Assembly: GCF_021730395.1 (NCBI RefSeq)
Contig: NC_069364.1
Span: forward strand, 83,531,972 to 83,595,971
Origin: Mercenaria mercenaria
Lineage: Eukaryota
Length of the DNA stretch: 64,000 nucleotides
Direction of reading: 5' to 3'
Positions 7,906-48,554 of this stretch are shown one piece after another. Positions within the stretch are counted from its first letter, which is position 1. Every line of letters begins with the position of its first letter. The notes below the pieces were generated by a model, which saw only the letters and a program-made list of their open reading frames with translations, was not told the origin of the DNA and did not search any database. A program made the position numbers and the translations under genes.

Positions 7906-9555
7906 ATGAGTAAAATAAATGCGTTGAAATCCACGCTTTATATGAAAATAAATACTACAGAAGATGTATCCAGAATCAGAAATTGTTTCGAAAAGTGTGA
8001 TAGAGAACAGTTATTATCGTGGACGGATAAGAATGGCTACGATATTCTTCATCATGCTATCATGTCAGAGAACATTGAAGCGGTTGGAATAATCTTTGCT
8101 CTTGGTCACTTTAAACCACCGCACGAGCCAAAATTTCATTCTTATATACATCTGGCAGCAAACTTTGGAAACAGAACAATAGTGGCTATGCTTTTGCAAG
8201 AAAGACCACGCGATTATTCTACGAAGAAAACAAAATTCAAATGGGTTAATCCTCCGACAGAGGCACCACAGTATTCTTCTGATGGAACGAGTATGGCGAC
8301 ACCTCTAGATGTTGCCGCAGAAAGTGGACATGTTGCATGTGTGAGATCAATTTTGGATGTATCTTCTGTGAAAACCAAGTTGGAATTTGGATCAGATAAT
8401 CATTTATCTGCAGCATGTGCTAGCAATTCTCCTTCTGCTCTACGTCTGTTGCTCAAACAAAAAACATCATCTGATGATCTTAAGTCAGCAGTAGGCACAG
8501 CTTTAAAGCTTGCAAATGCAGAATGTTTAGATGTTCTTCTAAGATGTAATCCATCTCTGGCCTCACTTTTCAGTGGGATGAACTTGTACCACGTACTTTA
8601 CTCATACAGCTTGTCATTTAAGAAGGAATGGTACGAATCTCTACTGACAGTGACCTCTGTCTTACTTAAGTACAAGCAGAACCCTGTAGTAAATATCCCG
8701 TTTCGCACTTACCCCCTGTACAGTTTACTTAGCCATACACCAGCCTCCGACTTCGGTAAATCGTCTCCATATATAGTAGCATGTATGGTTGTTCTACTGA
8801 ATGCAGGAGTTGACCCAAATTTCAACGAGGTTAAGTTTGAGGCTGAACACGAATCGTTGCAGATACAATCAGCGTTTGGTAGATCTGCATACCCATCCGC
8901 GCTTCATTGCCTTTACGACAATGTAACAACATTAGTTAGACACTTTGAGGATGATGCCACAAACATTAAACGCTTTGTTACCAAGTGTACAGAAACTTTA
9001 TTACGTCATGGCGTTGATCCTTCAGTACGAGGCCCCATAGGCGACATGCCCAGTAGTTTGGTAGGAAATGCATTACATGCATTTTTGAAAGTTTCGATAT
9101 TGCTTGGATTGGATGAACGCAGCATTACCGTGTTTCGGCTGTTGATGCAAAATGGATCTGATCCGAATGAAAATGTGTCGGGAAAATATCCTCTTAACAC
9201 ATTCTGTGACGAGATTTTAACACATTCTAAAAGGTTTGAAAAACTACCAAAATCTGAAGAAACTGCACAGTCTGAATACGTTAGAGAGGTTGCTGTAACC
9301 CTGCTAGACAATATGACAATGTCGTCTGTCAGCAGCGCGTGCAAAGTGGAATTTGGCGGGAAACCCATTCATGAACTACAGAAGAAACTTTTTAAAACAT
9401 GTAAAGACGAGATGCAGAAGAGATCTTCCACAGTTTGGAACTTAAAAGTTCTCTGTAGACTGAGCATTTTGCAAGCATGTGAATGGCAATCGACAAAGGT
9501 GGTTGAGCTACCCATACCGACAGCGTTGAAAAAATACATAAATCATGTAGATTAA
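7906..9555 (+). CDS. Intronless ORF encoding an ankyrin-repeat plus SOCS-box (ASB-like) protein, 549 aa
   Basis: The ORF is uninterrupted. N-terminal ankyrin-like repeats include GYDILHHAIMSENIEAVGIIFALG, SYIHLAANFGNRTIVAMLL and TPLDVAAESGHVACVRSIL. The C-terminus NLKVLCRLSILQACEWQSTKVVELPIPTALKKYINHV fits a SOCS box (BC box xLxxLCRxxI plus Cul box LPIPxxLxxYI). Confidence 0.6.
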   Translation: MSKINALKSTLYMKINTTEDVSRIRNCFEKCDREQLLSWTDKNGYDILHHAIMSENIEAVGIIFALGHFKPPHEPKFHSYIHLAANFGNRTIVAMLLQERPRDYSTKKTKFKWVNPPTEAPQYSSDGTSMATPLDVAAESGHVACVRSILDVSSVKTKLEFGSDNHLSAACASNSPSALRLLLKQKTSSDDLKSAVGTALKLANAECLDVLLRCNPSLASLFSGMNLYHVLYSYSLSFKKEWYESLLTVTSVLLKYKQNPVVNIPFRTYPLYSLLSHTPASDFGKSSPYIVACMVVLLNAGVDPNFNEVKFEAEHESLQIQSAFGRSAYPSALHCLYDNVTTLVRHFEDDATNIKRFVTKCTETLLRHGVDPSVRGPIGDMPSSLVGNALHAFLKVSILLGLDERSITVFRLLMQNGSDPNENVSGKYPLNTFCDEILTHSKRFEKLPKSEETAQSEYVREVAVTLLDNMTMSSVSSACKVEFGGKPIHELQKKLFKTCKDEMQKRSSTVWNLKVLCRLSILQACEWQSTKVVELPIPTALKKYINHVD

Positions 9556-14185: not shown

Positions 14186-15243
14186 TTATACGCCCGAAGG
14201 GATGTATTATGTTATGGTCCCGGTGTCCGTCCGTCCGTCCGTTAGCAATTTCGTGTCCGCTCTGTAACTCTTGAACCCCTTGAAGGATTTCAAAGAAACT
14301 TGACACAAATGTTCACCACACCGAGACGACGTGCAAAGCGCATGTTTTGGGTATCTCATTTCAAGGTCAAGGTCACACTTAGGGGTCAAAGGTCATATGA
14401 GTGTGTTTCGTGTCCGCTCTGTAACTCTTGAACTGCTTGAAGGATTTCAAAGAAACTTGGCACAAATGTTCACCACACTGAGACGACGTGCAGAGCACTT
14501 GTTTCGGATGACTAGCTTCAAGGTCAAGGTCACACTTAGGAGTGAAAGGTCATATATGACTTTGCTGTGTCCGCTCTGTAACTCTTGAACTGCTTGAAGG
14601 ATTTCAAACAAACTTGGCACAAATGTTCACCACACTGAGGCCACGTGCAGGGCGCTTGTTCCGGATGACTAGCTTCAAGGTCAAGGTCACACTTAGGAGT
14701 GAAAGGTCATATATGACTTTGCTGTGTCCGCTCTGTAGCTCTTGAACTGCTTGAAGGATTTCAAACAAACTTGGCACAAATGTTCACCACACTGAGGCCA
14801 CGTGCAAAGCGCATGTTTTAGATGGCTGACTTCAAGGTCAAGGTCACACTTAGGGGTCAAAGGTCATATATGACTTTGCTTTGTGTATATCGCTATGCAT
14901 TGCAATGCTCTTGTTTTTATTTGGCAGATCCCTTTTTTTTCTCTTACAATAAATTTTTTTAATTACTTTCCTTTTTTGTTACTATAAATAGCTTATTTTA
15001 AAACTTTTTTTATTATTGGCAGTTGGGAAAATTCGAGACCACTTTTCTGTGGTACAACATGGATGGTACATCCAATTTTTAGATGTATTTTGACATAACT
15101 TTACCTGGTAAGAATTTTTTTTTTAATTTCTTTTTTTTTTTTTGGTTCCTGTTCTTTGGGCTTCAACAGTCAAGTTCTTTATGCTCCCATCCTCTGATGT
15201 AACCCTTCGGGCGTATATTGCCCCGCTTGTCGGCGCTCTTGTT
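14186..15243 (+). mobile_element. Helitron-like non-autonomous element with 14-bp inverted termini and an internal 157-bp x 4 satellite
   Basis: The 5' end is TATACGCCCGAAGGGATGTAT, then GTCCGTCCGTCCGTCCGT. The array runs 14250-14890. 14890-15120 shares the GCAGATCC...TTCTGTGGTACAACATGGATGGTAC 3' module with the elements at 36118, 39313, 40954 and 54470. The 3' end is CCCTTCGGGCGTATATTGCCCCGCTTGTCGGCGCTCTTGTT; its CCCTTCGGGCGTATA is the reverse complement of the 5' end. Confidence 0.45.
14250..14890. repeat. Tandem satellite, period ~157 bp, about 4 copies
   Basis: GTCCGCTCTGTAACTCTTGAAC...TTCAAGGTCAAGGTCACACTTAGG recurs at 14253, 14412, 14569 and 14724. Confidence 0.7.
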
Positions 15244-19826: not shown

Positions 19827-20230
19827 ACAACAACTAGTATTTCCCATTTTGTTCTGTGTGTAAAAGGTATTTTCCGCACGAACGTTAAATGACAAATTTT
19901 ACAACTTGTGTTTGAAGTAAGTATTTAAGTCTATCATTTCATAACGCCCTAGGGTCAAAATAGTGTTCAGTGCCGCTGTATATCTTAAGGGATTCGCAAA
20001 ATAATGGGCTATTCCAGAAAATGTCCACCCCATCGTTTAAAAAAAAACGGCAGTGGCTAGAGAACCAGAATCGGTTCCCTATACAGCGGACTTATTCGTC
20101 CGGGACCAGTTCTACATCTACATCTACATCGTTACAACCAACAATCGATTTCCGATTATGACTGGTCGGCGCTGTCAGAGAAACAGTTGTTAAAGAAATT
20201 TAGTATATTACAGTATTAAAAGTAAAGGAT

Positions 20231-21833
20231 GATTCTAGCGGTACGGATCCGTACCTCTAGACAAGCCTGTTAGGGGTTTTCTAGGGGTACGGACCTCCTT
20301 TTTCTAGAAATTTAGGGTTATTTATATCTTAAATTTTGTTGAAAATGAAATAACAACAAAGTCTTAACCAGTCTTCACTTAAAACTTGAATCTAATTGGT
20401 TTACAGATACCAGCGTTCGTCCGATTGTTTACCTTCTCTTTCAGAACCTAAATAACCGAGGAACTCCAAATGGATACACTGTTCTGTGCCGATAGGAATT
20501 AGTTTGTTGTCAAATAAACTGTTGATAACAGCTAGATTAATGAATGAATCTATCCCTTAAATGAATTCTATTTGAAATTCAGCAAATAAATAAATAAATT
20601 AGGCATAATAATATGCTAGTCCAAATAATTGTACTCGAGAGTTGAATATCGTTATATTATTTTGACTTGTCGATATCCGCCTCCGAGTACAAACCAGAAA
20701 AGGTAAAGAATGTGGTAGCACTGTCCTCTTCTTTGCGTAAGTAACACCCAATGGAATCCGTTGGGCGGGAACTATGTTATGATAATGCAACGGATAAAAA
20801 AAAGAAATACATACACAGAAAGCCTGTAATTTTTCCTTTTCAGTGATGTATATATTACCGAGATTTCTTGAGAAAAATTCAAACTACGACAGTTAAAAAA
20901 ATGCCAAGGTTTAACACGAGTGTACTACATATCGGAAAATGGTCGATCACCGGTAAACACATTACTACACGAAGCGTTTTCATTGGTCACGCCTCCGACC
21001 GCCATTACATGAAGACGATTGAAACATTAGAGGTTTAAATGTTTTACAACAGAAATTCTTGATAAATATGTCCTGTTCTTATTTTTTTTATTTACTATTT
21101 ATGATTTAAAACAACTGGTAAGCAGTTAGGGCTAAAGAAAAATCGTGACTACTGATAAATCGTAATTTCAATTGACCACAGTTTCCACCACAGTTTTGAT
21201 TGTTTCTGGTTGAGACCTCTAGGTAGACAACGTAAAATATCAAAATGTAAAATCGGTCTGCCCGAGGTCTCATTATTTAGACTAAATAATATGCACCAAT
21301 CTATTTTGTTATTTAACAATGTACATTGTTGTATAATGATAATCGGCACGGAACTTTAATGATCAATTAAGCGACATTAAGTAAAAGAAACTGTTTGTGA
21401 AAACGTCCCATGTATCTCGTAACGGCTACCAAATGTGTGAAAAACGTAAATACACTAAGGGCTAATTATCAATTAAAAGTAGTTTTCCCCCAACATACTT
21501 AAAATTATTTTGTTTAATCTTTATATCTTTTTTTTCTGCCAGTTCGAAACTTCGTGATTTATTTGGTGTTCCTCGGTTATTTACGTTCCGAAAGAAAATG
21601 TAACAAATCGGATGAATGTTGTTATCTGTAAACCATTTAGATCCAAGTTTAAGGTGAATTCTGATGAAATGTTATTTGTTATTTTTTTTTCAACAAAATC
21701 TGAAATGTAAATGACCCTTAATCTCTAGAAAAACTGAGGTCCGTACCCCTAGAAAACCCCTAAAAGGCTTGTCTAGAGGTACGGATCCGTACCTCTAGAA
21801 TCAGATTCTAGAGGTACGGATCCGTACCCCTAG
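20231..21833. mobile_element. Foldback-type non-autonomous element with ~280-bp terminal inverted repeats
   Basis: 20231-20500 is the reverse complement of 21545-21833 along its whole length. The termini contain the perfect 26-bp palindrome CTAGAGGTACGGATCCGTACCTCTAG, two tandem copies at the right end. There is no ORF inside. Confidence 0.5.
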
Positions 21834-21834
21834 A

Positions 21835-22460
21835 CACTTCCAAAAGTAAAAGATAAAAGGACAGTATGCTACAGTTAAAATAGGACAGAATGGAAGAATT
21901 ACATAGTGACCGCCGCCAGCCTCTCTGTAAAGGTACTGAGGCTGGGGCTAGCTTTGACTGATGTGGGGAGGGAGTTCCAGAGACGGATGGTTCTAGGGAA
22001 ATAAGAGTTAGCAAAGTATTGAGTGCTGGAATAAGGGATCAAGTAGTTCAGGTTTCTAATTGGGGACAAGTAACCTTGGTCAATAGCAACGGTCTGGGTC
22101 CTTACTTTGTAAAACAAAAGTAATGAACAGTTTAACCTACAGTACTGGAGAGTTTTCCATTCTAAGGATTTCAACATTTCAGTTACACTGCTTGTATAGT
22201 TGTAATCATTCATAACATACCTAGCTGCTGACCTTTGGACTCGTTCAAGTTTATGGGTGAGGGTTTTCTGCCAGGGATGCCACACAGTTGAACAGTATTC
22301 TAGCTGGGGGCGGACATAGGTGGTGTATGCAGCTTCTTTGACCTTTTTGTTATCTGTCTTGACATTTCTCTGAATAAATCGAAGGGAAGAGGTTGCCTTA
22401 GAAGTTATGTTTTCTATATGTTGTGACCAGTTCAAATCATTGGAGATAGTTATTCCTAGG
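21835..22460 (-). mobile_element. 3' part of a split CR1-like LINE (end of ORF2 plus 3'UTR)
   Basis: The minus-strand translation starts exactly at the CTAGG at 22456-22460: LGITISNDLNWSQHIENITSKA...VRPQLEYCSTVWHP...ERVQRSAARYV...LEWKTL. This is the typical LINE ORF2 tail, with the stop at 21899. Confidence 0.6.
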
Positions 22461-23058
22461 CAGTGCTCCAGCTAGCTATTTACAGCAGGGCGCATCGCCC
22501 GTTCCGAAATTCGTTCCGCCCTGTTGCCCTGCCAGGCACCCTGCCCGTTTTACAACCATTCATTTCCTTTTTTAGCCAAACCTACCTTTTGTGCCTCAGT
22601 GATTGTAATAAACTGCTTTATTGTCCACTTTTTATCGAGTGATACACGCCGGGGGGCAGTGACATAATTAGCAAACAATTACCTGCTGTAATCGTGCCCG
22701 AGGCAGACTGTGATATTTTAGACTGCTCCACTAACATTAAAATGACTGAATCTTAGTGTTAACACAGTTTGCAAACCAGTCTAAAATCATTATTATTTTC
22801 GCGCCACCTGTCAAATTGTACTTTCGTTTTCGGTAACATAGTCGTAAATATCCTTTATACATAACTGAAACTTAAGTCCAGACAACAGACATTTAAATCT
22901 AACTAATAAAAATCGATCACAATCAAATTTAGATAGGAAAATATTTTGATTTTATCGTTTTACAAGTTTTTAAAATCGAAAGTAGGCTGTCGTCTGCTGT
23001 GTGAAATTGCCGATTTTTCACGAAAGATTTCTTTGAAGTTAGTTTAATAAGATGTAAC

Positions 23059-23517
23059 ACGGTGGGGAAACCAAGAATGCAACGTCATCAAAACCCAGCG
23101 CAAATGAGCTGACCACACACAAATTTACGTCGATTCAGGTCAGAAAAGTCTTGTAACTTTTTTATTACTGCAGCTTTCGACTCGAGATAAAGAGCACCGT
23201 ACCCGGCCTGGAGTATACTATTCTGCGGTAGTGTTCCATATTGTACATATAGCTTGGTTTTTGCTCGAAAACGCGAACAGTTGGCAAAGAAGGTATGAGC
23301 TGTACCACACTTTTGTCTAAGAAAGTGAGTTTTGACCGCATTTTCGTGAAATGAGGACAGATTTGAAGCTCATTTAATATCAGTGACTAGCATAATAGTC
23401 AAACATTGCTTTATTTTGCTATTTTCAAGGATATCTGACGATATTTTATTAAAAAAAAACACCGTTATTAAAATGAGAACATCCACACTGACGACTTTGT
23501 TGGAGAACATCCACACT
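23059..23517. repeat. Left arm of a ~460-bp internal inverted repeat (partner arm at 25801-26256)
   Basis: CACGGTGGGGAAACCAAGAATGCAACGTCATCAAAACCCAGCGCAAATGAGCTGACC is the reverse complement of 26200-26256. The inner ends (GGAGAACATCCACAC and GTGGATGTTCTCC) also match. The loop is about 2.3 kb. Confidence 0.7.
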
Positions 23518-24227
23518 CTTAATTACCATTATTGCAGTAATGCTTCCTAAAAGCTGTGTCTTAGGCAGTCAAGCTACGTTGTTCAACAACAAATGTCGTC
23601 TATACATACAATCAGCAGTTCATACCATTTACCGCAAGTCTGTAGACCAGTTAAAATAGATCTGCCAAATTATATAGCAATGGCTGAGCACATGTTAGGC
23701 TAACATTAATCTCTGTGTAAAGTGTGGCATAAGGACACGGTGTTCAGATTGATTGCATCTTAGGAAAAACATTATTTTAAGATAACAAGACAAAGTCGCA
23801 TAAAAGTCCTGCACACAAAGTTTAAAAGCAAATAGAGGATTGAAATAGTTATTGTATTGTTATTTTGTTTAGAACTATATCCATCCCAAAGTGCATAAAA
23901 CACGGATAGTTAGTACTTTAACTAAATATTATAACTGTTAGATATTTTAAATCTTATTTCAGCAAATGGAAGTCTCTTTCAAATATCAAATACAATCCAA
24001 CCTTATACATAAAAAACCGATAGAAAGGCATACAATGTATTATCATTACGTAGACTAAAGCCTGGGTTCTGCATACGGAACCGAAATTCGTTTATTGAAT
24101 GGCAATCCCATGACAACAATATTATATTTCTAAAGATAAAACATGATATTAAAATTGTTTGAACATTAAATAGTTCTAAATGGTGTCTTTAAATCAGCTT
24201 GATCTCTTAAAATAAAGGCAAGGTCTA

Positions 24228-24300
24228 TAGCCAAGTGTTAGGGCGTCCGCTTTGAGTGCGTGAGGTCGTGGATTCGATTCCCGGCCGCGTCATACCAAAG
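24228..24300 (+). other. tRNA-like segment with A-box and B-box-like motifs, probably a tRNA-derived SINE head
   Basis: GGTCTATAGCCAAGTGTTAGGGCG is A-box-like (TAGCCAAGTG). GGATTCGATTCCCGG is B-box-like. I could not draw a complete cloverleaf by eye, so it is not called a tRNA gene. Confidence 0.3.
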
Positions 24301-25800
24301 ACGTGAAAAATGGTACCAGTAGCTCCCTTGCTTGGCGTTCAGCATTAAAAGGGAAACTGGCCTCTTCTCTCATACCCCCGTGGCGATTGATCCCATCAGG
24401 AATGAGGGGTCGAGAGTGATGAATGTAAGTTATAGAACTTCCTTCAAAATCGACCTAAAATGAATTCTGTATAAACTAAAATAAAGGCAAACATAAAAAC
24501 ACGGTTTTATACATTTGATTTAATCACATGTAAGACCGTAGCTTATATTTTTGACTGAGAAGATTCATTAAAAGCTTCATTGGGGACAATTTACTTTTGA
24601 AAAGATGATTTCCTATAGGCACATATTACAAAAAGTTACTTAAGGTCAAAACATTTTGTTCAGCAGAAAAAGCACGTGACTCTATCAATTTACATTTGCC
24701 AAAAGTTGCAAGTTTATTCTATAATTTGGAAAAATCGGGAGTTTAATCAAATTTCAAATCAGTGAAGAAAACAAAAATGGATCCGAACTACCTTAAGCAT
24801 CATACGGGAAAGATTTTCATGTAACACCTTAAACTTTCGTCAGTATTTATACACCTTTCCATACTCTCTCCGCTGTGACTGTCTTAAGTGTTCCCGCAGA
24901 GCAGGTTTTCCGGCTGAAGCTTAGCCCCTAATATCGCACTTCAATCAAATGCTGATTTATTAAAATGAATTGCCCATAATTTGAAATGTTCTGCAATGCC
25001 ATTGGACAAAATGATTTCAATCACTAAATACTGTTACAACTGTATTAATAATTTACTAGTTGCGGGCACCTATTCACATTAGCAGATCTTAATAATTTCA
25101 AATTGTTTTATAGAGCTTGAGCCGTATTGTTCGTTAATAATAGTTCAGCCAGGAAAATTGTAAGGGTGTTTAAGTATAAGTTTGTGGTTTGGTAAAAGAA
25201 ATTTACATAGACTTTGTTATCTCGCATATGTTATTGGTGCTAAAATAATTTAAATGGGATGAGAAGTTTTATTTTTCTAATTATTGGCTAACCTGTTTAG
25301 TGTTTAAAATTATTTTTTGTTTACAAATTTAAGCTCTGCGTACAGTATATGTGACTTACCGGGTTAATAAACGAATGAAAGTAAATCTTGATTTACCAAA
25401 ATTAATTTCCCCATAATTCCAAAAATACTGCAATGACATTGGAGAAAAGTAATTTCAAACACTAAAAAGGTGGAAAAAAGATTTATGTTTTCTTTTCCAT
25501 TTTTATATTTTATATTATAATTATTATATATAACACGATCTTATTCATGTAGAATCTACTCTACTAAATATTTATATAGATCAAATGCCCTACGGATTGC
25601 AACAACATTTTCAAATTGACATTATTAAATTTGCAGTATGTCATAAAAAGAAAAAATACTGCCATCTGAAACAAAATAACGAATGACGCGCAGATTGAAT
25701 GCAGTGAAACTTATCACTTTTACCTTACTTTTTCACATGTCAGATTTTAAAAACAAAAACGGTTTTGTCTTGATTTTTCTAAATAGTGCATGATAATAGT

Positions 25801-26256
25801 GTGGATGTTCTCCAACAAAGTCGTCAGTGTGGATGTTCTCATTTTAATAACGGTGTTTGTTTTGAAAAAATATCGTCAGATATCCTTGAAAATAGCAAAA
25901 TAAAACAATGATTGACTGTTATGCTAGTCACTGATATTAAATGAGCTTCAAATTTGTCCTCATTTCACGAAAATGCGGTCAAAACTCACTGTCTTAGACA
26001 AAAGTGTGGTACAGCTCATACCTTCTTTGCCAACTGTTCGCGTTTTCGAGCAAAAACCAAGCTATACGTACAATATGGAACACTACCGCAGAATAGTATA
26101 CTCCAGGCCGGGTACGGTGCTCTTTATCTCGAGTCGAAAGCTGCAGTAATAAAAAAGTTACAAGACTTTTCTGACCTGAATCGACGTAAATTTGTGTGTG
26201 GTCAGCTCATTTGCGCTGGGTTTTGATGACGTTGCATTCTTGGTTTCCCCACCGTG
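25801..26256. repeat. Right arm of the internal inverted repeat
   Basis: See the left arm. The listed ORF 25954-26226 lies entirely within this arm and is not considered a gene. Confidence 0.7.
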
Positions 26257-26886
26257 TGTAATGACAGGGTAAACTTTAATGTATGATACAGTTAAATGCT
26301 GTTAAACTGTCTTTGCATCATAATATTTTTTCAAAAATATTGTTTAAACTTGACATTAGAAAAGTGTAACCATACCCGGATATAAAATTTTTGATACCCG
26401 GAATACGTTCTATAGAAGTGCTAAACTTACTTTTAGACTGTTGTAAGTTAAATACTTTGCCTAATTTCATTTATTTAAGTGGAAGTTTAAACTTTATCTT
26501 CTGTATGTTGCACACAGAAATTTTTAAATATCAAGTATATGGAGAAGATGTGTACTGAAATTGTAACAAGTAAAATAGTCCTAAACACATAGGTATTGTT
26601 ATTCAATATGCAATTACAAAGTAATGTTACAAGTAAAATACAAGCAGCAGAATTTTTAGTTAATAAATAGGTGTATTTGAGATGACAAACATAGCCTATC
26701 AAAAGACAAAGTATGCCTTATACCATGCCTAAATTATGCCAAATTCCATGCCTAAAGTATGTTAAAATGCACTGAATGCATGTACTAGTTACAATTTTTT
26801 CCTGGGGGAGCATGCCCCCAGACCGACCCTCTTAGAAGTGCCCTTTCCAGTGCCAGCACCCTGCCCTTTTTAAATCCTAGCTGGAG

Positions 26887-29052
26887 CACTGCTAGGTATT
26901 TAGCTGATGAGGTGGACTTTAACTCTGTATTGTGTAACCTGTAGGGATATATAAAGGGATTTCTCTTTCTACTTACTCTAAGGACTTCACATTTGTCGGG
27001 GTTAAATTCCATTTGCCAGACTCTTTCCCATGTTTCTAATTTATGGAGATCTTCTTGAAGGGCTATGCTATCATTATTTGATTTGACAGTGAGGTAAACG
27101 ATGGTGTCATCTGCAAACATACGGGTTTTACATTTGACTGAGTCAGGCAGGTCGTTAATGTATACAAGGAAAAGGCAAGGCCCAAGGACAGACCCCTGTG
27201 GAACTCCAGACAGGACTGGAAGTTCGCTGGACAGGTGACCTTCAACTGCGACCTTCTGGGTACGATTAGAGAGGAAGGATTTGACCCAATTAGTTATTTG
27301 GGGACTAACACCTAGGGATTGTAACTTGTAAATTAGCCTCAAATGGTCAACTTTGTCAAATGCCTTAGAAAAATCCATTACGATGACGTCAGTTTGTTGG
27401 CCTTGTTCTAAATTACTATAAAGTTCCTGGGTAAAATTAATAAGCTGAGTTTCGCAACTATGACCCGACCTGAAACCATGCTGGAACTGGCTGATAATAT
27501 TGTGTTTGTCAAAGAAGGACATAAGATTTGAAACCACGATGTGCTCAAGGAGTTTGGACGCAATACAGGTCAGAGAGATTGGTCGATAGTTGCTGGGTTT
27601 TGATTTGAGACCTTTTTTAAAGACTGGTGCAACTGTTGCCTTTTTCCAGTCTTGAGGGACAATGCCTGTATTTAGGGATAAATTGAAGATGTGGCAAAGG
27701 ACGGGGGCGATTTCTTGGTGAAGTTCCTTGAGAACACGGGGGGATAATTCATCTGGCCCCGACGCTTTATGTGGGGATAGGCCAAGAAGGAGTTTGTCAA
27801 CACCCTCTGGAGTCGCATTTATTTGGTCCATTAGGGAGGAAGGGGATGTTAACAGTTTGGAGCACAAATGTTTAAGGCTTAGGGGCTTAGGTGGGGAGAA
27901 AACTGATTCAAATTGCTTATTAAGGATGTTTGCTTTAGTGACTGGATCAGTATGGGTGAAACCATCTGATTTGAGTGGGGCTATGCCAACATTTTCTTTT
28001 TTGTTATGTTTGATGTAGCTATAGAATTTCTTATTTCTACCAGGTTGGGAATCATGGCTAAAGATGACGTTTTCCATGTATGACCAGTATGAGGCTCTTA
28101 TTTGCCTTTGTATATAGGATTTTAGGGACTTCAGGTTCTGGTTCTTAGCTTGATTTGGGGATTTGTTGAGTTTGTGATAGAGTTTATCACGCTTGTGGAT
28201 AAGCCTGATAATTCTGGGAGTTAACCAAGGCAAGTCGGCACGGGATTTGGATATTTTAGTAGGGATATGCTTGATACAAGATTCATTTAAGCTGTCCTTA
28301 AATGAGTTCCAAGCCTCATCAGGGTTTGTATAGGCCTTACTTATAAAACTACTACTAAATGAGCGCATGTCAGATCTGATCGCCTCCCAGTTAGTTTTCC
28401 GATATTGTTTTGGCTGGATGGGTCGCCCTCTGTTTATTTTGACCTCATGAAATACTGTATCATGGTCAGAGGTTGCAAGGCCGGGAAGTGTCTTGACGAG
28501 GTGGACATGGGATGGGTGGGAGGTAAGGAAGAGGTCAAGGGTATTGGACAACCTGGTTGGGACTTTTACCATCTGTTCCAAATTTAGGTGGGACAGTTTT
28601 TCCATAAAATCTTCATAGAGACTTCTTTTTTTACAATTTGGTTTGAGTGTTTCATTGACCCAGTTGATATCAGGCATGTTGAAGTCTCCAGGGAGCCATA
28701 TTATGCTATCCTTCGGGATTTTACTTAAGGATGACCACAGTTCAGACAATGATAGTTCGTCAAGTTCATGTGGTTTATAGTATGCTCCAACATAAATGTT
28801 TTTTATACCAGTTAAAGTTATTTTTGACCATGTTATATTACAGTTAGTTTTAAGGTCAGGTTGTTCTTGACTGAGTAACGCTTTAGAGATGGCAATCATC
28901 ACTCCCCCGCCCTGTCCACCACACCTATCATCCCTACAGACACTATAGTTTAGGGTATCTGGAAAAATTTCAGAAGAACTGACATCAGGTTTTAACCAGG
29001 TTTCAGTGAGACAGATAATATCAGGTTTGACTTGGTCTACCATTAGATGCAA
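26887..29052 (-). CDS. LINE ORF2: APE-type endonuclease plus reverse transcriptase
   Basis: N-terminus MHLMVDQVKPDIICLTETWLKPD (APE). RT motifs: LSPRVLKELHQEIAP, FDKVDHLRLIYKL, SGVPQGSVLGPCLFLVYINDL, MFADDTIVY. The ORF-track end at 26785 is read-through into the inserted transposon; LINE-derived coding ends at KYL (26890). Confidence 0.75.
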
Positions 29053-29331
29053 GTCAGGTATTTTATTCTTTACGGACCTACAATTGATGTTGAGAATAGT
29101 GAGGCGCTCGGAGTTATTGAGTTTGACTTTAGGTGGCCTTGACTTACTTTTGGGGTTGGGGGTGGATGTTGCTTTTGGGGTTGAAGGTGCATCTTGAAGA
29201 AAAGAGGAGTGGTCTACATTTGTACTGATATTATCATGATCATTATTGAGGGGTGCATAATATTAACTATCACTAAGACTATTAAGGGAGTCAGTCAACG
29301 AAACTGAATAATTAGGAGAACCACATTGACA

Positions 29332-29577
29332 TCAATACCAGCTAAACTTAGAGTCTGATAACCTGTTGTATGTGGAATTACCTACCCCTTCACAAGCTGC
29401 GTGATACCATGTTTCACAGTCATCACATAATATGCCCTTCTGGGACCATGAGACATTTTCAGAGCACTTACCACAAGGATACTGGGTGCCACTGCAAGGA
29501 CCTGGATTTGGTTCGATGTCTGAGATTTGGCTGGCCAGTAGGCAGAACACAGGTTCTCTAGCCAAAGTACCGTGCAT
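29332..29577 (-). CDS. LINE 5' ORF (ORF1-like) with a 2A-like DIEPNPGP motif followed by a Cys/His zinc-finger-like motif
   Basis: Translation: MHGTLAREPVFCLLASQISDIEPNPGPCSGTQYPCGKCSENVSWSQKGILCDDCETWYHAACEG. DIEPNPGP fits the DxExNPGP 2A consensus, encoded at about 29497-29520. It lies 280 bp upstream of ORF2 on the same strand. Confidence 0.45.
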   Translation of the reverse strand: MHGTLAREPVFCLLASQISDIEPNPGPCSGTQYPCGKCSENVSWSQKGILCDDCETWYHAACEGVGNSTYNRLSDSKFSWY

Positions 29578-29650
29578 AGGCTAGAGAACCGGAATTTTAT
29601 TTCTATGCATAAAGCTGCCGAAATTCACTTCGTTTCTTTTGGTATCATGC
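29560..29650. repeat. Inverted repeat arm (partner at 31140-31235) enclosing ~1.5 kb of AT-rich sequence
   Basis: CCAAAGTACCGTGCATAGGCTAGAGAACCGGAATTTTATTTCTATGCATAAAGCTGCCGAAATTCACTT is the reverse complement of 31140-31232. Next to the partner lies a hairpin (GCTAGAGAACCGG...CCGGTTCTCTAGC, 31236-31300). A related hairpin is at 20040-20110. Confidence 0.55.
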
Positions 29651-31867
29651 ATATTATAGGAGAGATTGTGTTTGTACACAAATCCGTTGTATATTCTATT
29701 TTTAGAACTGATAAGACAAAGATCGGGTGGGCAGAGGCCGAGCGTCCATGTTTTTTTTTGTTAACAGTGATGTTTTTCTAACGGCTTAAACTTTCTTAAA
29801 ATACAAATAATATCAATAATTTTTTGATCAATGGAAAGGATATAAACAAGCAATTTATTGATAACTTTTAATCATTATTTCGAAATAAAATGGATTAATT
29901 ATGAACGCTTAACTTACAGTGTTTTTTCTAAAAGTTTGGAGCATCGCTACGCTGCTATTAAAATCATATCTCATTTAAAACGGTTATTCATTTTCAAAAA
30001 ATATTTGAATAAGAAAATATGAAAATTATAAGCATTTCAAAACTTTTTGAATTTTTAAAATCCATAAATGAACGAAGAAGTTATTAAAATTTAAAATTCC
30101 GATCCCATACACAAACGATGTAAAATATTTTGTTTTACCCACCACCAGATAAACAGGTGTTGATGCGTGACGTCAGGGCGATCACTCCTATAATCTTAAA
30201 ATTAATTTTATCATACCCTTGTATTTATCTGCATTTACTGTGTCTTCAGAAGTTTCTCGCAGCATACCGCCATTTTCGGACATTTTTATCATTTCTTACA
30301 AGATTTTTCTGGTACAATCTAAAATAAAAAGCCAATAAAAAGTCTGTATTTAAGAAAAATATGATCACTGTTGCAAAAGCAACTCTTATTTGAAGAATTT
30401 GCCGAGAATAAAGTCATGCAAAGGCACCAAACCCCACCCACTTTAGGCAATGTGCAAAATAAGACAACTAAAATATGAATTGCTTAAGACAATCTGTAAT
30501 GACTATTGTACTTGTTTTAGATAAAGTATGTGGGAGTTTCATTAATAACAGTATATCTTGACTGCTGAAAGGCTGATCTTGACTCTTGAAAATCTGATTT
30601 TGACCCTTGAAAATTTAGGCTGAAGAGTCAATGACTCTTGAGTTTCAGAACCTACCGAACACCCTGGTTATTTGCTTTAAACATGTATTTTATTTAAATT
30701 ATTTAAATGTAAAATTGTATTGTTTTGTATATGTGTCATTAGAAGTAAAACTAACGGATGTACAAAATAATTAAATTGCCGTGATAGCTTCCAGCGGATT
30801 CTTTGCTCACTTTAAATACTGGTTTTTAACACCTCGGTATTTCACGTGCATCAGTCTTTATTGGATTAAAGTTTGCAAGTGATTAGCAAATTGGAAAAAA
30901 CAAAAACATGTAATCAATACTTATTAACAGTAATGACTTAATTTGTTTAGATTGTTTCTTTTACTCTGTTATACCTTTGAGTTTAAATTTCAAGTTTAGT
31001 TCGTCTTGCTCCATGCCGAAAGATTTTACGCATTTTATATCATTCCAATATGGCGGACAGTATGCGGCGAATAGACACAGTAAACGCAAGGGCTTGGCTT
31101 GCTGAAATGGTAAAAATAATTAAGATAATAACATGCATGATACTTACCAAAAGAAACAAAGTGAATTTCGGCAGCTTTATGCATAAAAATTAAATTCCGG
31201 TTCTCGGGCCTATGCACGGTACTTTGGCTAGAGAACCGGTTCCGGACGAATAAGTCCGCTGTCTAGGGAACCGATTCCGGTTCTCTAGCCTCTGCCAAAA
31301 AAAAAAATATCCCCTTTCCCGAAAACATTTACCCCCTCCCAACTTCCACACCCTGGTTACCTCAAAATACCGGCATGCCAAAATACCCCCTCTCCCATAA
31401 CTTGGGTTATGATTTACATTTTACTCGGACTTTATCATAGACTCTCTTTTAATTAAAATAAAAGTATTAAATCGATATAATATTTCAATGAAACTTCAAA
31501 GTTTTGTTGTTTGTAGCATCATCTGGGGCATGTGCAGTGAAAAATCTTAATTTGATATCTAAAATAGTATATTATTTATTTCTAAAGTCACTATATTTTC
31601 ATTGTAAATACACTTGGTTATACCCAAGTGGAAACTGGCAGGTACTCAAAAATGCAGCTCTCTGATTGGTCAGTTAGAACCCCTAATGTACTGTGATGTC
31701 ATAATAAAGTTATGAATAAGGTGGATACAATATACATGCATTCTGTATAGGGGACGATGCCATGATTATGCTATAAAACTTCGTTTACCTTCGACGTTTG
31801 ACAGTTCAGGCCAAAAACAATAGGTCGATCCGTTTCCAGTCTCCTGACTGACCCTCTTTTTTTTTTT

Positions 31868-36117: not shown

Positions 36118-37359
36118 TCACATAGTGACAAGGTGAGCTTTTGTGATCACCCTTTGTCCGTCGTCTGTGCGTGCGTCCGTCCGTCAACAATTTCTTGTCT
36201 GCGCGATAGTGATTTCATTTATGATTTTATTTTAACTAAACTTGCACACAACTTGTATCACAATAAGATCTTGGTTCCTTTTTTGAGATTCCTTTATGGG
36301 TTCCAGAGTTATGGCCCCTGATACGGCCAGAATTAGCTATTTGACCTTGTCTGCACAATAGCAGCTTCATTTATGATTTGAATTTAATCAAACTTGCACA
36401 AAACTTGTGTCACCGTAAGATCTCGGTTCCTTTCTTGAACCGGCCAGATCCCATAATGGGTTCCAGAGTTATGGCCCCTGAAAGGGCCATAATTAGCTAT
36501 TTTGACCTTGTCTGCACAATAGTAGCTTCATTTATGATTTGATTTTAACCAAACTTGCAGACAACTTGTACCACCACAGGTCTTGCTTCCTTTCTTGAAT
36601 TGGTGAGATTCCATCATGGGTTCCAGAGTTATGGCCCCTTAATGGTCCAAAATTGGCTATTTTGACTTTTGTAGCCATATAGAGACTTCATTTATGGTTT
36701 TATTTGATACAAACTTCCAAAATATCTTCAACAACAATAAATCTTGGATTCCATGACAAATCAGATCCAATCGTAGGTTCCAGAGTTATTTTATATCTGA
36801 TTACCTCCCCTGATTGTAATCAAAATGGATTTAGATCAGTAAGTACTTATAGGACTTATTTGAAATTTCATTATTGTTATTAGTTGGACTGAGACAATCA
36901 GGGTAGATAACTATGGACTGATATTATGTCAAATTACCTCCCTTTATTTCAAATTAAAATGGGTATATCTCCATAACTAATGAAGATACTGATCTGAAAT
37001 TTCATTTATGTCAACAGATTTATTTGGCAGATCCTTCTTTTGTTCACTTACAGTATATATTTTTTTTTAATTACTTCCCTTTTACATTACTATAAATAGC
37101 TTATTTTTAGTAACTTTTTTATTATTGGCCATAGGGAAAAACCGAGACCACTTTTCTGTGGTACAACATGGATGGTACCTCCAATTTTTAGGTGTATTTT
37201 GACATATCTATACCTTGTAAGATTTTTTTTTTTTTTGGTTAAATTTCTTCCCTTTGTTGTTCCTGTCCTTTCGACTTAGATATTTTTTCTGAGGAACTTC
37301 TTGTCCTCGAGTGCAGTGATTACAGGTGAGCAATATAGGGCCATCATGGCCCTCTTGTT
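36118..37359 (+). mobile_element. Helitron-like element with a ~162-bp x 3 satellite plus the shared ~700-bp 3' module
   Basis: The 5' end is AGCTCACCTGTCACATAGTGACAAGGTGAGCT, then TTTGTGATCACCCTTTGTCCGTCGTCTGTGCGTGCGTCCGTCCGTCAACAATTTCTTGTCTGC. The array unit is TGACCTTGTCTGCACAATAGCAGCTTCATTTATGATT...GGTTCCAGAGTTATGGCCCCTGAAAGGGCCA. The 3' end is CAGGTGAGCAATATAGGGCCATCATGGCCCTCTTGTT. Confidence 0.5.
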
Positions 37360-39312: not shown

Positions 39313-40891
39313 AGCTCACCTGTCACATTGTGACAAGGTGAGCTTTTGGGATCACCCTTCGTCCGTCTTCAGTCCGTGCGTCCGTCCGTGCGTCCGTCAA
39401 CAATTTCTTGTCTGCATGATAGTGGTTTCATTTATGATTTTATTTTAACCAAACTTGCACACAATTTGTATCACTATAAGATCTCGGTTCTTTTCTTGAA
39501 CTGGCCAGATCCCATTATGGGTTCCAGAGTTATGGCCCCTGAAAGGGCCAAAATTAGCTATTTTGACCTTGTCTGCACAATAGCAGCTTTATTTAAGATT
39601 TGATAGTTACCACACTGGCAAACAACTTGTATCACCATAAGATCTTGGTTCCTTTCTTGAACTGGCCAGATTCCTTTATGGGTTCCAGAGTTATGGCCCC
39701 TGAAAGGGCCAGAATTAGCTATTTTGACCTTGTCTGCACAATAGCAGCTTCATTTATGATTTGATTTTAACCAAACTTGCACACAACTTGTATCACTATA
39801 AGATCTTGGTTCCTTTCTTTAACTGGTGAGATTCTATTATGGGTTCCAGAGTTATGGCCCCTGAAAGGGTCAGAATTAGCTATTTTGACCTTGTCTGCAC
39901 AATAGCAGCTTCATTTATGATTTGAATTTAATCAAACTTGCACAAAACTTGTGTCGCCATAAGATCTCGGTTCCTTTCTTGAACTGGCCAGATCCCTTAA
40001 TGGGTTTCAGAGTTATGGCCCCTGAAAGGGCCAAAAGTAGCTATTTTGACCTTGTCTGCACAATAGTAGCTTCATTTATGATTTGATTTTAACCAAACTT
40101 GCACACAACTTGTATCATCACAAGATCTTGGTTCCATTCTTGAACTGGCCAGATTCCATCATGGGTTCCAGAGTTATGGCCCCCTAAAGGTCCAAAATTG
40201 GCCATTTTGGCTTTTGCAGCCATATAGAGACTTCATTTATAGTTTTATTTGATACAAACTTCCAAAATATCTTCAACAACAATAAATCGTGGATTCCATG
40301 ACAAATCAGATCCAATCGTAGGTTCCAGAGTTATTTTATATCAGATTACCTCCCCTGATTGTAATCAAAATGGATTTATATCAGTAAGTATTTATACGAC
40401 TTATTTGAAATTTCATTATTGTCATTAGTTGGACTGAGACAATCAGGGTAGATAACTATGGACTGATTTTATGTCAAATTACCTCCCTTTATTTCAAATT
40501 AAAATGTGTATATCTCTGTAACTAATGAAGATACTGATACGTCAACAGATTTATTTGGCAGATCCTTCTTTTGTACACTTGCAGTAATTTTCTTTTTAAT
40601 TACTTCCCTTTTTCGTTACTATAAATAGCTTATTTTTAGTAACTTTTTTATTATTGGCCGTAGGGAAAAACCGAGGCCACTTTTCTGTGGTAAAACTTGA
40701 ATGGTACCTCCAATTTTTAGGTGTATTTTGACATATCTGTACCTTTAAAGAATTTTTTTTTTTTTTTTGGTTAAATTTCTTCCCTTTGTTGTTCCTGTCC
40801 TTTCGACTTAGATATTTTTTCTGAGGACCTTCTTGTCCTCAAGTGCAATGAAAACAGGTGAGCGATATAGGGCCATCATGGCCCTCTTGTT
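39313..40891 (+). mobile_element. Helitron-like element, 162-bp satellite family, ~5 monomers
   Basis: Same ends as the 36118 element: AGCTCACCTGTCACATTGTGACAAGGTGAGCT at the 5' end and CAGGTGAGCGATATAGGGCCATCATGGCCCTCTTGTT at the 3' end. Same 3' module. Confidence 0.5.
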
Positions 40892-40953: not shown

Positions 40954-42383
40954 AGCTCACCTGCCACATAGTGACAAGGTGAGCTTTTGTGATCACCCTT
41001 CGTCCGTCGTCAGTCCGTGCGTGTGTCCGTCCATCAACAATTTCTTGTCTGCACAATAGTGGTTTCATTTATGGTTTTATTTTAACCAAACTTGCACTAC
41101 ACTTGTATCACCATAAGATCTTGGTTCCTTTCTTGAACTGGCCAGATCCCGTTATGGATTCCAGAGTTATGGCCCCTGAAAGGGCCAAAATTAGCTATTT
41201 TGACCTTGTCTGCACAGTAGCAGCTTTATTTATGATTTGATTTTTACCAAACTGGCAAACAACTGTATCACCATAAGATCTTGGTTCCTTTCTTGAACTG
41301 GCCAGATTCCTTTATGGGTTCCAGAGTTATGGCCCCTGAAAGGGCCAGAATTAGCTATTTTGACCTTGTCTGCACAATAGCAGCTTCATTTATGATTTGA
41401 ATTTAATCAAACTTGCACAAAACTTGTGTCACCATAAGGTCTTGATTCTTAAGTTGAACCAGCCGGATCCCTTAATGAGTTCCAAAGTAATGGCCCCTGA
41501 AAGGGCCAAAATTAGCTATTTTGACCTTGTCTGCACAATAGCAGCTTCATTTATGATTCGATTTTAACGAAACTTGCACACAACTTGTATAAACCACAAG
41601 ATCTTGGTTCCTTCCTTGTACTGGCCAGATTTCTTCATGGGTTCCAGAGTTATGGCCCCTTAAAGGTCCAAAATTGGCTATTTTGACTTTTGCAGCCATA
41701 TAGAAACTTCATTTATAGTTTTATTTGATACAAACTTCCAAAATAACTTCCAACAACAATAATTCTTGGATTCCATGACAAATCAGATCCAAACATAGGT
41801 TCAGAGTTAATTATTTTATATCTGATTACCTCCCCTGATTGTAATCAAAATGTATTTATATCAGTAAGTACTTATAGGACTTATTTGAAATTGCATTATT
41901 GTCATTAGTTGGACTGAGCCAATCAGGGTAGATAACTATGGACTGATTTTATGTCAAATTACTTCCCTTTATTTCAAATTAAAATGGGTTTATCTCTGTA
42001 CCCAATGAAGATACTGATCTGAAATTTCATTTATGTCAACAGATTTATTTGGCAGATCCTTCTTTTGTTCACTTACAATAATTTTTTAATAATTACTTCC
42101 CTTTTACGTTACTATAAATAGCTTATTTTTAGTAACTTTTTTATTATTGGCCGTAGGGAAAATCTGAGACCACTTTTCTGTGGTACAACATGGATGGTAC
42201 CTCCAATTTTTATGTGTTTTTTGACATATCTGTACCTTGTAAGAATTTTTTTTTCTTTTTGGTTAAATTTCTTCGCTTTGTTGTTCCTGTCCTTTCGACT
42301 TAGATATTTTTTCTGAGGACCTTCTTGTCCTCAAGTGCAGTGATAACAGGTGAGCGATATAGGGCCATCATGGCCCTCTTGTT
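40954..42383 (+). mobile_element. Helitron-like element, 162-bp satellite family, directly downstream of the previous copy (52-bp gap)
   Basis: AGCTCACCTGCCACATAGTGACAAGGTGAGCT at the 5' end; GGCCATCATGGCCCTCTTGTT at the 3' end. Confidence 0.5.
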
Positions 42384-47285: not shown

Positions 47286-48219
47286 ACAAAATTATGCCCC
47301 TTTTTTGACTTAGTAATTTTGGTTAATTTTTAAGTATGTAAGCTGGTATCTCAGTACCCACAAATGGGAATGGATTGAAACTTCACACACTTGTTCACTG
47401 TGACGGTCTGATATGCATTGTAGAGGATTCATAACTCTGATTTGCATTTTTACAAAATTATACCCTTTTTCAACTTGTATTTATTAAATTGACAAGGCTG
47501 TTGAATAGTCGAGCGACAGCTTGTACATACAGTAAAGTTAGATATTTTTGTACAAGGCTTACAGTCTGTCAGTTTTAGAATTGGAAGTTCTGCATGTGGT
47601 ACAATGTTTTCAGTGTAAGGTAACTTATGAAACATCAGAGGACAATTTACAATAATCACAAGAAAAAGTTCTTGTCTTAATTACACCGTTAGCCAATATA
47701 GCAGAAATAAAACCCTTGCAAAAAATTCTGGTGTTACAGTATTGAAAAATGCAGCCTATTTCAACTTTGTGTTGATGAAAAGACCACCTACCTGGTGATG
47801 TTAAGAACTGTAAGACTAAGAGTGTGAATACAGTGATGTCATTAATACCTGTGGGGAACTCATTTTCTTGTACATTCTGTTTGCGTCAGTTACGGAAATA
47901 AAATCAACAAATAACATCCCCTTTCATTTTATCTTTCACATTTGAAATATGTGAAATCATACCCTCCTAGATTAACATTAATTTAAAGCTGTTTTGGCCA
48001 AAAGAATGAAGTTTTATATGCATGTGAACTTAAATTTATTTCCCAGTGACTACATGTATATAAAATGAGCATTATGTTAGTATGAATGCTACACATTACA
48101 CTACAAAATTACGTTGTTTCTTTTTGCCATTGAAAAGTCGCTATACATTAAAGTTTGCATATATATTCCCATACAGGTTCTGTGTGTATGTTTACACTGT
48201 ACCTGTAATTTATACATAG

Positions 48220-48495
48220 GGCATTCTTTAGCACATTTCGAAATTACTTTGATAGATGAACAGTTATGGAAACACAGAGATGAAGCGAGACATAAACTAC
48301 CTAAATTGCGGCCACTTGGCCAGATGAAAAAGAAGTTCAGCCCTGAGGAGCTAATGAAGATGGGATTTACAAAATGTACAGAATGCAGTAGCTACTTTCC
48401 GACCCAAAGAAAATTAAGACAACATTTATATGCGAGTCATAGAGAAATAATGCCCCCTCCAACCTGTCCAGTATGTGGAGAAGACTTTCAATCAT
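48220..48495 (+). CDS. Internal exon of the C2H2 zinc-finger gene
   Basis: Acceptor catag ends at 48219, in phase 1. Translation: HSLAHFEITLIDEQLWKHRDEARHKLPKLRPLGQMKKKFSPEELMKMGFTKCTECSSYFPTQRKLRQHLYASHREIMPPPTCPVCGEDFQS, with one complete C2H2 finger. Donor GTAAAG at 48496. The last finger is completed only after splicing to 50050: CPVCGEDFQS-Y-KELYKHKREKQH. Confidence 0.5.
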
Positions 48496-48554
48496 GTAAA
48501 GTATATTTTTTTGTTGGTTTTTGTCCCTATCATGGCCTAATTGTTCGAAACTTT

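Follow-up and report, generated by a model that had tools for sequence, protein, structure and literature searches.

Layered transposon insertions in a LINE of the hard clam Mercenaria mercenaria: a putative hAT5-like element carrying a Transib-like one

Introduction

In a 64,000-nucleotide stretch of the Mercenaria mercenaria genome (contig NC_069364.1, positions 83,531,972 to 83,595,971, forward strand; hereafter the window, numbered from its first letter), two minus-strand portions of a LINE are separated by 4.4 kb of DNA bounded by inverted repeats and a short direct repeat. A sequence-only reading of this locus had proposed that a LINE was split by a terminal inverted repeat element whose excision restores the open reading frame exactly, and had regarded the superfamily of the insert as unclear and possibly unusual. 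The question raised is whether the locus holds a new kind of element or known elements stacked upon one another. The analysis reported here indicated the latter: the locus is ordinary transposon layering, composed of the following features.

20049-20113: left tip of host element X (inverted match of 20049-20113 to 31296-31232, 92%)
20114-29552, minus strand: LINE, 5′-truncated and interrupted by two insertions
20114-20226, minus strand: LINE 3′ end, with the last stretch of 3′ UTR and a microsatellite tail, placed by alignment to L001, the DNA of an intact relative
20227-21841: second insertion into the LINE, a 1615-bp DNA transposon in the 3′ UTR, Mutator-like by the length of its duplication
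21842-22460, minus strand: LINE segment with the C-terminal 186 codons of the ORF, its stop (21899-21901) and part of the 3′ UTR
22456-22460 and 26892-26896: CTAGG target-site duplication flanking the outer element
22461-26891: outer element, non-autonomous and non-coding, 4431 bp long at the locus and 1227 bp without the nested element, hAT5-like
23058-26256: inner element nested in the outer one, 3199 bp, non-coding, Transib-like
24222-24476, plus strand: candidate SINE of 255 bp within the inner element, with a putatively tRNA-related head bearing box A/B-like motifs
26897-29552, minus strand: LINE segment with a PHD finger (about 29332-29547), the endonuclease and most of the reverse transcriptase
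29553-31296: remainder of host element X, with its right inverted end at 31128-31296

Results

The in silico removal of 22461-26891 together with one CTAGG copy (4436 bp) produced, on the minus strand, a single open frame of 975 aa with endonuclease and reverse-transcriptase domains, in which the RVT_1 match (residues 551-794) spans the junction at residue 790. The rejoined protein reads SAKYL/GITIS at this point, and the junction STSSAKYL/GITISNDLNWSQHI corresponds to STCSAKYLGITITKDLNWSQHI in P0001, an intact protein of 1145 aa with 82% identity; the K-Y-L-G of the junction is invariant in nine relatives. Moreover, both halves are adjacent in the DNA of P0001, where L001 534-3199 corresponds to window 29549-26896 and L001 3203-3817 to window 22456-21842. 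A minus-strand LINE is interrupted by an inverted-repeat DNA element, the exact removal of which restores the frame, and the test suggested beforehand, namely excision, translation and alignment with a relative, returned a continuous ORF through the reverse transcriptase matching P0001. The contrary outcome, in which the halves would be independent truncated copies or the product of an assembly artefact, with a coincidental inverted repeat, is extremely improbable: a full-length relative has the pieces joined to the base, in its DNA as in its protein, the frame is kept across the junction, and the breakpoints coincide exactly with the perfect 15-bp inverted repeat and the 5-bp direct repeat. 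Independent truncated copies were ruled out by the kept frame and the contiguity in L001.

The former description of this LINE as near-complete proved generous. This dead copy begins at about L001 position 534, so that some 530 bp of its 5′ end are gone, it carries two in-frame nonsense codons (29332-29334 and 29263-29265), and its 3′ UTR received the second insertion. The strand had been correctly assigned, but the proposed span of 21835-29600 had to be corrected to 20114-29552, since the LINE resumes at 20226-20114 past that insertion; window 20226-20111 aligns with L001 3809-3925 at 87%, and the tail reads as a microsatellite of the (ATGTAG)n, or (ATCTAC)n, type. The domain search recovered Exo_endo_phos, Exo_endo_phos_2 and RVT_1, and the copy has the attributes of a non-LTR retrotransposon: AP-endonuclease and reverse transcriptase in one ORF, 5′ truncation, a target duplication and a 3′ tail. 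Its own duplication is GTTCT (20109-20113 and 29553-29557), and the empty target site, CCGGTTCTCTAGCC, is visible in the uninterrupted right end of element X. The closest relatives were PHD-containing endonuclease/RT LINEs of bivalves and amphioxus (P0001-P0007, with hits in Mercenaria, Pinctada, Ostrea and Branchiostoma). The clam LINE shares with them the single long ORF with an N-terminal PHD finger, AP-endonuclease and RVT_1, as well as the microsatellite-tailed 3′ end, and differs from them in its truncation, nonsense codons and interruptions.

The LINE sits in the left inverted end of element X, as also seen in the inverted match of 29549-29657 to 31240-31128 (90%). One 549-aa ORF of the window shows 100% identity to M. 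mercenaria LOC123552323, in agreement with the species assignment. The second insertion is flanked by a 9-bp duplication, AAAAGTAAA (20218-20226 and 21842-21850), present as a single copy in L001, where the intact site reads gttAAAAGTAAAAaataaaagg. Inverted repeats of about 100-240 bp bound this insertion, starting with GGATGATTCTAG / GGAAGTGTCTAG, and 20230-20471 matches 21803-21561 in inverted orientation at 85%. Duplications of 9-10 bp and long inverted ends characterize Mutator-like elements, and this insertion is classed as putatively Mutator-like by these two features.

The outer element opens with the perfect 15-bp inverted repeat CAGTGCTCCAGCTAG (22461-22475), the reverse complement of which closes it (26877-26891); counting an adjoining G/C pair as well, the repeat is 16 bp long. 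Both this repeat and the CTAGG direct repeat were found at the breakpoints as had been claimed, and from this copy alone the duplication can be read as 5 bp (CTAGG) or 3 bp (TAG). The location of a perfect inverted pair exactly at both LINE breakpoints is far beyond chance, and no further match to the 15-mer, allowing up to three mismatches, was found elsewhere in the window. A related end is provided by L005, a bivalve-like contig that has the same 15-mer followed by ATTTAAAAGGGGCAGGGT. There, the base before CAGTG is T, not G, which favours a repeat beginning at C and a duplication of 5 bp, not 3 bp, at the outer element. The description of the outer element is based on one complete copy and this one end. 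GGGCA/TGCCC occurs in it seven times, versus 0.8 expected, most of them in the last 100 bp at either end, and the GC content is 55-58% in the terminal stretches versus about 33-38% inside. In agreement with the claim that the insert has no transposase, a six-frame search of 22461-26891, covering both outer and inner elements, revealed no Pfam domain. No protein relatives of the outer element ORFs were found, and an autonomous relative or transposase was found for none of the DNA elements at the locus.

The internal inverted repeats of about 460 bp formerly attributed to the insert are present, but they are the ends of a separate inner element with a duplication of its own. These 464-bp ends (23058-23521 and 25794-26256) are 97.8% identical and are flanked by a perfect 5-bp TGTAA (23053-23057 and 26257-26261), also readable as 3 bp (GTA instead of TGTAA). 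They have the form CACGGTG-N23-TCAAAACCC, an RSS23-like layout of heptamer, spacer and nonamer, in which the nonamer agrees with that of the RSS, ACAAAAACC, in seven of nine bases, both key A's among them (chance from 0.001 with a fixed spacer to 0.007 with six spacers). Since the CAC start, the RSS23-like layout and the 5-bp duplication are those of Transib elements, the inner element is most likely a derivative of this superfamily, as judged from its termini and duplication length. It shares these features, 23-bp spacer included, with Transib and RAG-like elements (PMC1131882; bivalve protostome RAG-like, PMC7204232), and differs in lacking a transposase and in the length of its ends, atypical of described Transib families. 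With the protostome RAG-like consensus CACTWMCAAACKTYKBB (PMC7204232), its ends agree in CAC only. No related DNA was found in the prokaryote-genome or viral collections.

Similarly, the tRNA-like SINE head noticed before exists, but it is part of a whole candidate SINE that was inserted separately and not a feature of the outer element, as the 255-bp unit is delimited by a perfect 14-bp duplication, TAAAATAAAGGCAA (24208-24221 and 24477-24490). The match of its head to the tRNA model (24228-24285) is weak, with 16.5 bits vs a 29-bit threshold and an E value of 0.74, and ARAGORN was negative.

Discussion

PMC12730594 and PMC9004415 (citing Kapitonov & Jurka 2007, Repbase Reports) describe the hAT5 group as combining hAT-type termini with 5-bp duplications, and a mollusc genome carries an hAT5 annotation (PMC6128900). 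The 5′ termini of hAT elements all have G in third place, whereas Transib elements and RSSs have an invariant CAC (PMC1131882). The outer element presents CAGTG at both ends, following the pattern 5′-YARNG, 15-bp inverted ends within the range of about 10-25 bp known for hATs (PMC1131882, Fig. S7 legend), and CTAGG on both sides, with an excision that restores the LINE ORF and matches L001. Because hAT-type termini occur here with a 5-bp duplication, we infer from these two characters that the outer element is a hAT5 member within the hAT superfamily. The association of CAG-type ends with 5-bp duplications, which had made the superfamily seem doubtful, is already published under that name (PMC12730594, PMC9004415). 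Subterminal short motif repeats and occurrence in invertebrates, a mollusc included (PMC6128900), are further points of likeness. The outer element departs from the group in being non-autonomous, without the clade-defining transposase, and it was compared with the group in termini, duplication length and subterminal motifs. As in non-autonomous hAT derivatives (Ds-like elements and hAT MITEs, e.g., Mar in Drosophila, PMC3517528), its interior is unrelated to a transposase gene, and it would depend on short ends and subterminal motifs for a transposase acting in trans; those derivatives make 8-bp duplications, whereas the outer element made one of 5 bp.

Other placements of the outer element were weighed against hAT5. 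A true duplication of 3 bp (TAG) and ends of 16 bp, GCAGTGCTCCAGCTAG, would instead place the element in a superfamily with 3-bp duplications such as PIF/Harbinger, CACTA/EnSpm or Zator; the inverted repeat does continue by one base (G on the left, C on the right), and taking out 4433 + 3 bp yields the same rejoined ORF. However, L005 shows T where that G would stand, and the outer bases of CTAGG are complementary (C...G), so that a 5-bp duplication gives the extra paired base automatically, and the 3-bp alternative is unlikely. PIF/Harbinger targets are typically TWA, which TAG does not fit, and CACTA elements start with CAC, not GCAG. PIF/Harbinger was rejected on the sole 3-bp reading being TAG and on the absence of the extra G in L005.

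An undescribed lineage with CAG ends and 5-bp duplications, either hAT-related outside hAT5 or a new superfamily, would agree with an outer element to which no transposase could be linked; however, hAT5 already combines both traits and is known from invertebrates, a mollusc among them (PMC12730594, PMC9004415, PMC6128900), and nothing in the sequence demands a new group, which leaves this alternative improbable. Still less credible, to the point of being very improbable, is that the outer element is a member of Transib, the classical group with 5-bp duplications, with unusual CAG termini. The length of its duplication, an A-rich stretch, TAAAAAGGG, 12 bp past the first seven bases of its right end, and the Transib-like element at the same locus speak for this placement. 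Against it, the two outer ends begin with CAG, as does the one in L005, and at neither spacing is there an A-rich nonamer in the left end. Transib was rejected for the outer element on its ends, which lack the CAC start (CACAATG-like heptamer; PMC1131882); starting with CAG, the element does not fit Transib/RAG-like elements at all.

Thus, ordinary stacked transposon insertions, with an outer hAT5-like and an inner Transib-like element, constitute the preferred explanation, to which a probability of roughly two in three is assigned. That the 4.4-kb insert nests both eukaryotic transposon types with 5-bp duplications, the outer being hAT5-like and the inner a recently mobilised Transib/RAG-like derivative, is a tentative proposal, given slightly under even odds.

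The order of the insertion steps follows from the nesting, which was observed directly, as were the breakpoints, the duplications and the contiguity of the LINE halves. The 5′-truncated PHD-endonuclease-RT LINE inserted by retrotransposition into the left inverted arm of the older element X, duplicating GTTCT, and a short non-autonomous cut-and-paste element then entered the RT-coding region of the LINE. In this step, a transposase supplied in trans may have cut CTAGG with a 5-bp stagger, gap repair duplicating the 5 bp; such a cut and repair would explain why deleting the outer element and one CTAGG rejoins the ORF exactly. The 3.2-kb non-autonomous element followed into the outer element, and the putative tRNA-derived SINE retrotransposed into the 3.2-kb element with its 14-bp duplication. 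The entry of the 1.6-kb element with the 9-bp duplication into the LINE 3′ UTR was a separate event, outside this order.

The locus offers a five-deep nesting resolved to the base (element X > LINE > hAT5-like > Transib-like > SINE), which gives the relative order of activity of five families in the hard clam. Its significance is small outside annotation, where the 15-bp end, the 1.2-kb outer element and the RSS-like end can serve as seed sequences for a clam transposon library, and where elements pairing hAT ends with a 5-bp duplication belong under hAT5 and not among anomalies. Bivalve RAG-like elements have been reported so far in oysters and mussels, i.e., Pteriomorphia, and non-autonomous end pairs in a pearl oyster (PMC7204232). 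If the inner element is truly Transib/RAG-like and, with ends 97.8% identical, recently mobilised, it would point to the activity of such a transposase in a heterodont clam.

Rejoining of the interrupted LINE

The DNA element inserted in the RT-coding region of the minus-strand LINE (22461-26891, hereafter the outer element) is bounded by a perfect 15-bp inverted repeat and by CTAGG on both flanks. On the + strand, its left end reads ...TTATTC CTAGG / CAGTGCTCCAGCTAG CTATTT... (22456-22475) and its right end ...AAATC CTAGCTGGAGCACTG / CTAGG TATTT... (26877-26896), the slash marking the element boundary. A repeat finder returned 16 bp for this inverted repeat, as the G closing the left CTAGG is complementary to the C opening the right one. 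The 15-mer had no further match in the 64-kb window with up to 3 mismatches allowed. Deletion of 22461-26896 produced a single open frame of 975 aa on the minus strand (...KSTSSAKYLGITISNDLNWSQHIENITS...), in which Pfam recognized Exo_endo_phos, Exo_endo_phos_2 and RVT_1, the latter match (residues 551-794) spanning the junction at residue 790; a PHD finger was recognized in an 82-aa frame upstream. The proposal of the sequence-only reading, that a LINE had been split by an inverted-repeat insert whose excision restores the frame, was therefore upheld, and the nested insertion is confirmed well beyond chance.

A protein search retrieved an intact relative of 1145 aa (P0001) with PHD, endonuclease and RT domains and 82% identity over 100% of the query. 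This protein reads ...KSTCSAKYLGITITKDLNWSQHIENITS... at the junction site, and K-Y-L-G was invariant in nine members of the LINE family. The contig encoding it (L001) was aligned with the window.

Blocks aligned with L001, and the element hosting the LINE
29549-26896, minus strand: LINE 5′ half, aligned with L001 534-3199
22456-21842, minus strand: LINE 3′ half, aligned with L001 3203-3817
20226-20111, minus strand: LINE 3′ end, aligned with L001 3809-3925
20049-20113 and 29553-31296: element X, ~1.8 kb, with ~170-bp inverted ends starting GGCAGTGGCTAGAGAACC / GGCAGAGGCTAGAGAACC

These blocks show that the LINE halves abut precisely, to the nucleotide, in an element lacking the insert; they are contiguous in the intact relative, and the alternative of two independent truncated pieces was not seen. 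Moreover, the synonymous codons at the junction differ (TTGGGT in L001 and CTAGGA in the window), indicating that CTAGG is native to this LINE copy.

Limits of the LINE and its host element

The LINE had been described as near-complete and spanning 21835-29600, which the alignment did not sustain. The homology resumes at 20226-20111, so that 20227-21841 is a second insertion, placed in the LINE 3′ UTR, and the LINE in fact terminates at 20114, in a tail that reads (ATCTAC)n on the + strand. On the 5′ side, homology ceases at L001 534 (window 29549), and the reading frame is broken by two stop codons, at 29332-29334 and 29263-29265, where P0001 has a Cys and a Ser; therefore, this copy is 5′-truncated and dead even without its insertions.

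The second insertion is a 1615-bp element carrying AAAAGTAAA on both flanks, a 9-bp duplication of a sequence present once in L001. Its inverted ends (20230-20471 and 21803-21561, 85% identity) are long and palindrome-rich, with units of TCTAGAGGTACGGATCCGTACCTCTAGA, and the element appears to be Mutator-like, judging by the duplication length and the long inverted ends. Rfam matches at 21723-21836 (psbJ 3′ UTR, microRNA precursors including mir-5045, and the Listeria sRNA sbrA) were rejected as RNA genes: they represent palindromic transposon ends, whose palindromes give rise to spurious sub-threshold matches such as psbJ 3′ UTR and mir-5045.

Inverted repeats were also found at both LINE borders: 29549-29657, starting where LINE homology stops, pairs with 31240-31128 (90%), and 20049-20113, bordering the tail, is matched in inverted orientation by 31296-31232 (92%). 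The idea of a third insertion, at 29549, was discarded, as these repeats belong to the older element X in which the LINE landed; X has an intact right end (31128-31296) and a left end that the LINE interrupts. Comparison of the intact end, CCGGTTCTCTAGCC, with the split one, CCAGTTCT (LINE) GGTTCTCTAGCC, identified GTTCT as the LINE target duplication. Element X itself lies in A-runs (AAAAAAAC / AAAAAAAA), so that its own duplication could plausibly be of 8 bp but is ambiguous.

Composition and superfamily of the outer element

After removal of the nested inner element and one TGTAA, the outer element comprises 1227 bp (22461-23057 and 26262-26891). The terminal 100 bp of each side present 55-58% GC, versus ~33-38% elsewhere in the element. 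GGGCA/TGCCC occurs 7 times against 0.8 expected, five of them within 100 bp of an end, and these putative subterminal repeats look like transposase-binding sites. The insert had been said to carry no transposase ORF, and indeed a six-frame Pfam scan revealed neither a domain nor transposase remnants. The joined open segments of the 1.2 kb had no match among 5.8 billion proteins, the pattern CAGTGCTCCAGCTAG-N(1-2)-ATTTA was absent from viral contigs and prokaryote genomes, and a literature search with the element end returned only unrelated papers containing a 12-base string. No transposase, autonomous partner or second full copy of the DNA elements was found in the collections covered.

The same pattern recovered two metagenome contigs. 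One of them (L004), a GC-rich, dense-ORF bacterial contig similar only in the pattern, was rejected as a chance match. The other (L005, JYMV01006559.1) contains a genuine related end, ...GCCCAT/CAGTGCTCCAGCTAGAATTTAAAAGGGGCAGGGTTCC...AAAGGGCAC..., whose 15-mer and subterminal GGGCAGGG/AAAGGGCA motifs also occur in the right end in the window. It is AT-rich, without dense ORFs and with bivalve-type repeats, and looks like bivalve nuclear DNA, that is, host DNA in a metagenome, carrying an end of the outer-element family. Its repeated units read ...CCTCCACCAATAA(C/A)A(T/C)T(T/G)ACCGCCACGATATAACTGAA.... This contig stops 119 bp into the element, so that the duplication cannot be read in it.

Two groups of eukaryotic cut-and-paste elements with 5-bp duplications have been described, Transib and hAT5. 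Transib ends always start with CAC, and the third nucleotide, C in recombination signal sequences (RSS) and Transib, is always G in hAT 5′ termini (PMC1131882). hAT5 is unusual for its 5-bp duplications and is present in invertebrates and fish (PMC9004415), including the snail Lymnaea (PMC6128900). The CAGTG found at both ends of the outer element fits hAT5 and does not fit Transib, with its invariant CAC. Thus, the termini and the duplication length argue for a hAT5-like element, with a probability of roughly 0.65, and the superfamily, previously regarded as unclear and possibly unusual, probably corresponds to a described group. The copy in the window, taken alone, would also agree with a 3-bp duplication (TAG) and 16-bp ends starting GCAGTG; this reading is improbable, as a T precedes CAGTG in the related end of L005.

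The inner element and its putative SINE

The ~460-bp inverted repeats had been attributed to the outer insert. They correspond to 23058-23521 and 25794-26256 (97.8% identical) and are flanked by a perfect TGTAA (23053-23057 and 26257-26261), which makes them the termini of a separate 3199-bp element within the outer one. Its end sequence starts CACGGTGGGGAAACC..., and both termini (23058-23096 and 26218-26256) present CACGGTG, a 23-bp spacer and TCAAAACCC. For comparison, Transib has CACAATG-N23-AAAAAAATC as its consensus and RSS have CACAGTG-N-ACAAAAACC, CAC and nonamer positions 5-6 being invariant (PMC1131882). The inner-element end preserves CAC, both nonamer A's and 7 of the 9 RSS nonamer bases, a likeness expected in random sequence of matching composition with p ~0.001 at the 23-bp spacer and 0.007 over six spacers. 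This end, which also contains a 90-aa ORF, had no match in the prokaryote-genome or viral collections.

The inner-element end resembles a 23-type recombination signal or a Transib end, accompanied by a 5-bp duplication, and on these features a Transib-superfamily derivative is slightly favored. However, 464-bp termini are unusual for Transib, and there is no agreement past CAC with the protostome RAG-like consensus (PMC7204232).

Within the inner element, a 255-bp unit (24222-24476) has TAAAATAAAGGCAA, a perfect repeat of 14 bp, on either side. Its head gave a weak, sub-threshold Rfam tRNA match (16.5 bits, E 0.74) that takes in the D, anticodon and T arms, and ARAGORN found no tRNA. The natural reading is a retroposed tRNA-derived SINE; the tRNA-like head noticed earlier is present, as part of this whole nested unit.

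Other features of the window

An intronless 549-aa ORF with ankyrin repeats and a SOCS box (7906-9555, +) is 100% identical to M. mercenaria LOC123552323 (database protein P0121), with orthologues in Ruditapes philippinarum (84%) and Mya (68%); the full identity marks the window as DNA of the hard clam. Three successive ORFs at 4363-6018 (-), two with weak RVT_1 matches, indicate another decayed retroelement, and C2H2 zinc-finger ORFs at 48114-48572 and 50043-50594 (+) may represent exons of one zinc-finger gene. Tandem-repeat arrays with units of ~145 bp and ~161 bp (31.9-37.4, 39.3-45.3, 54.4-56.5 and 63.6-64.0 kb) form several related families of 80-95% identity, with shared non-repeat flanks (14916-15163, 37019-37277, 40550-40809, 42044-42301 and 56180-56437); they may be satellite-carrying mobile elements of a kind common in bivalves.

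Insertion order and mechanism

The breakpoints, the duplications and the nesting order of the stacked elements are seen directly, the order being X, LINE, outer element, inner element, putative SINE; the 1615-bp element entered the LINE separately. The initial reading of the insert was correct as to a nested insertion in the LINE and missed three further layers. Each DNA element would have been mobilized in trans: a transposase from another locus would recognize its short termini and the subterminal motifs and cut the target with staggers of 5, 5 and 9 bp, the target duplications then arising by gap repair. Since staggered cutting and gap repair would duplicate the target, excision of the outer element with one repeat copy restores the LINE ORF, which is the normal footprint of insertion and no special property. 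The stack is made of known kinds of element, and the suspicion of an unusual superfamily for the outer one was not borne out.
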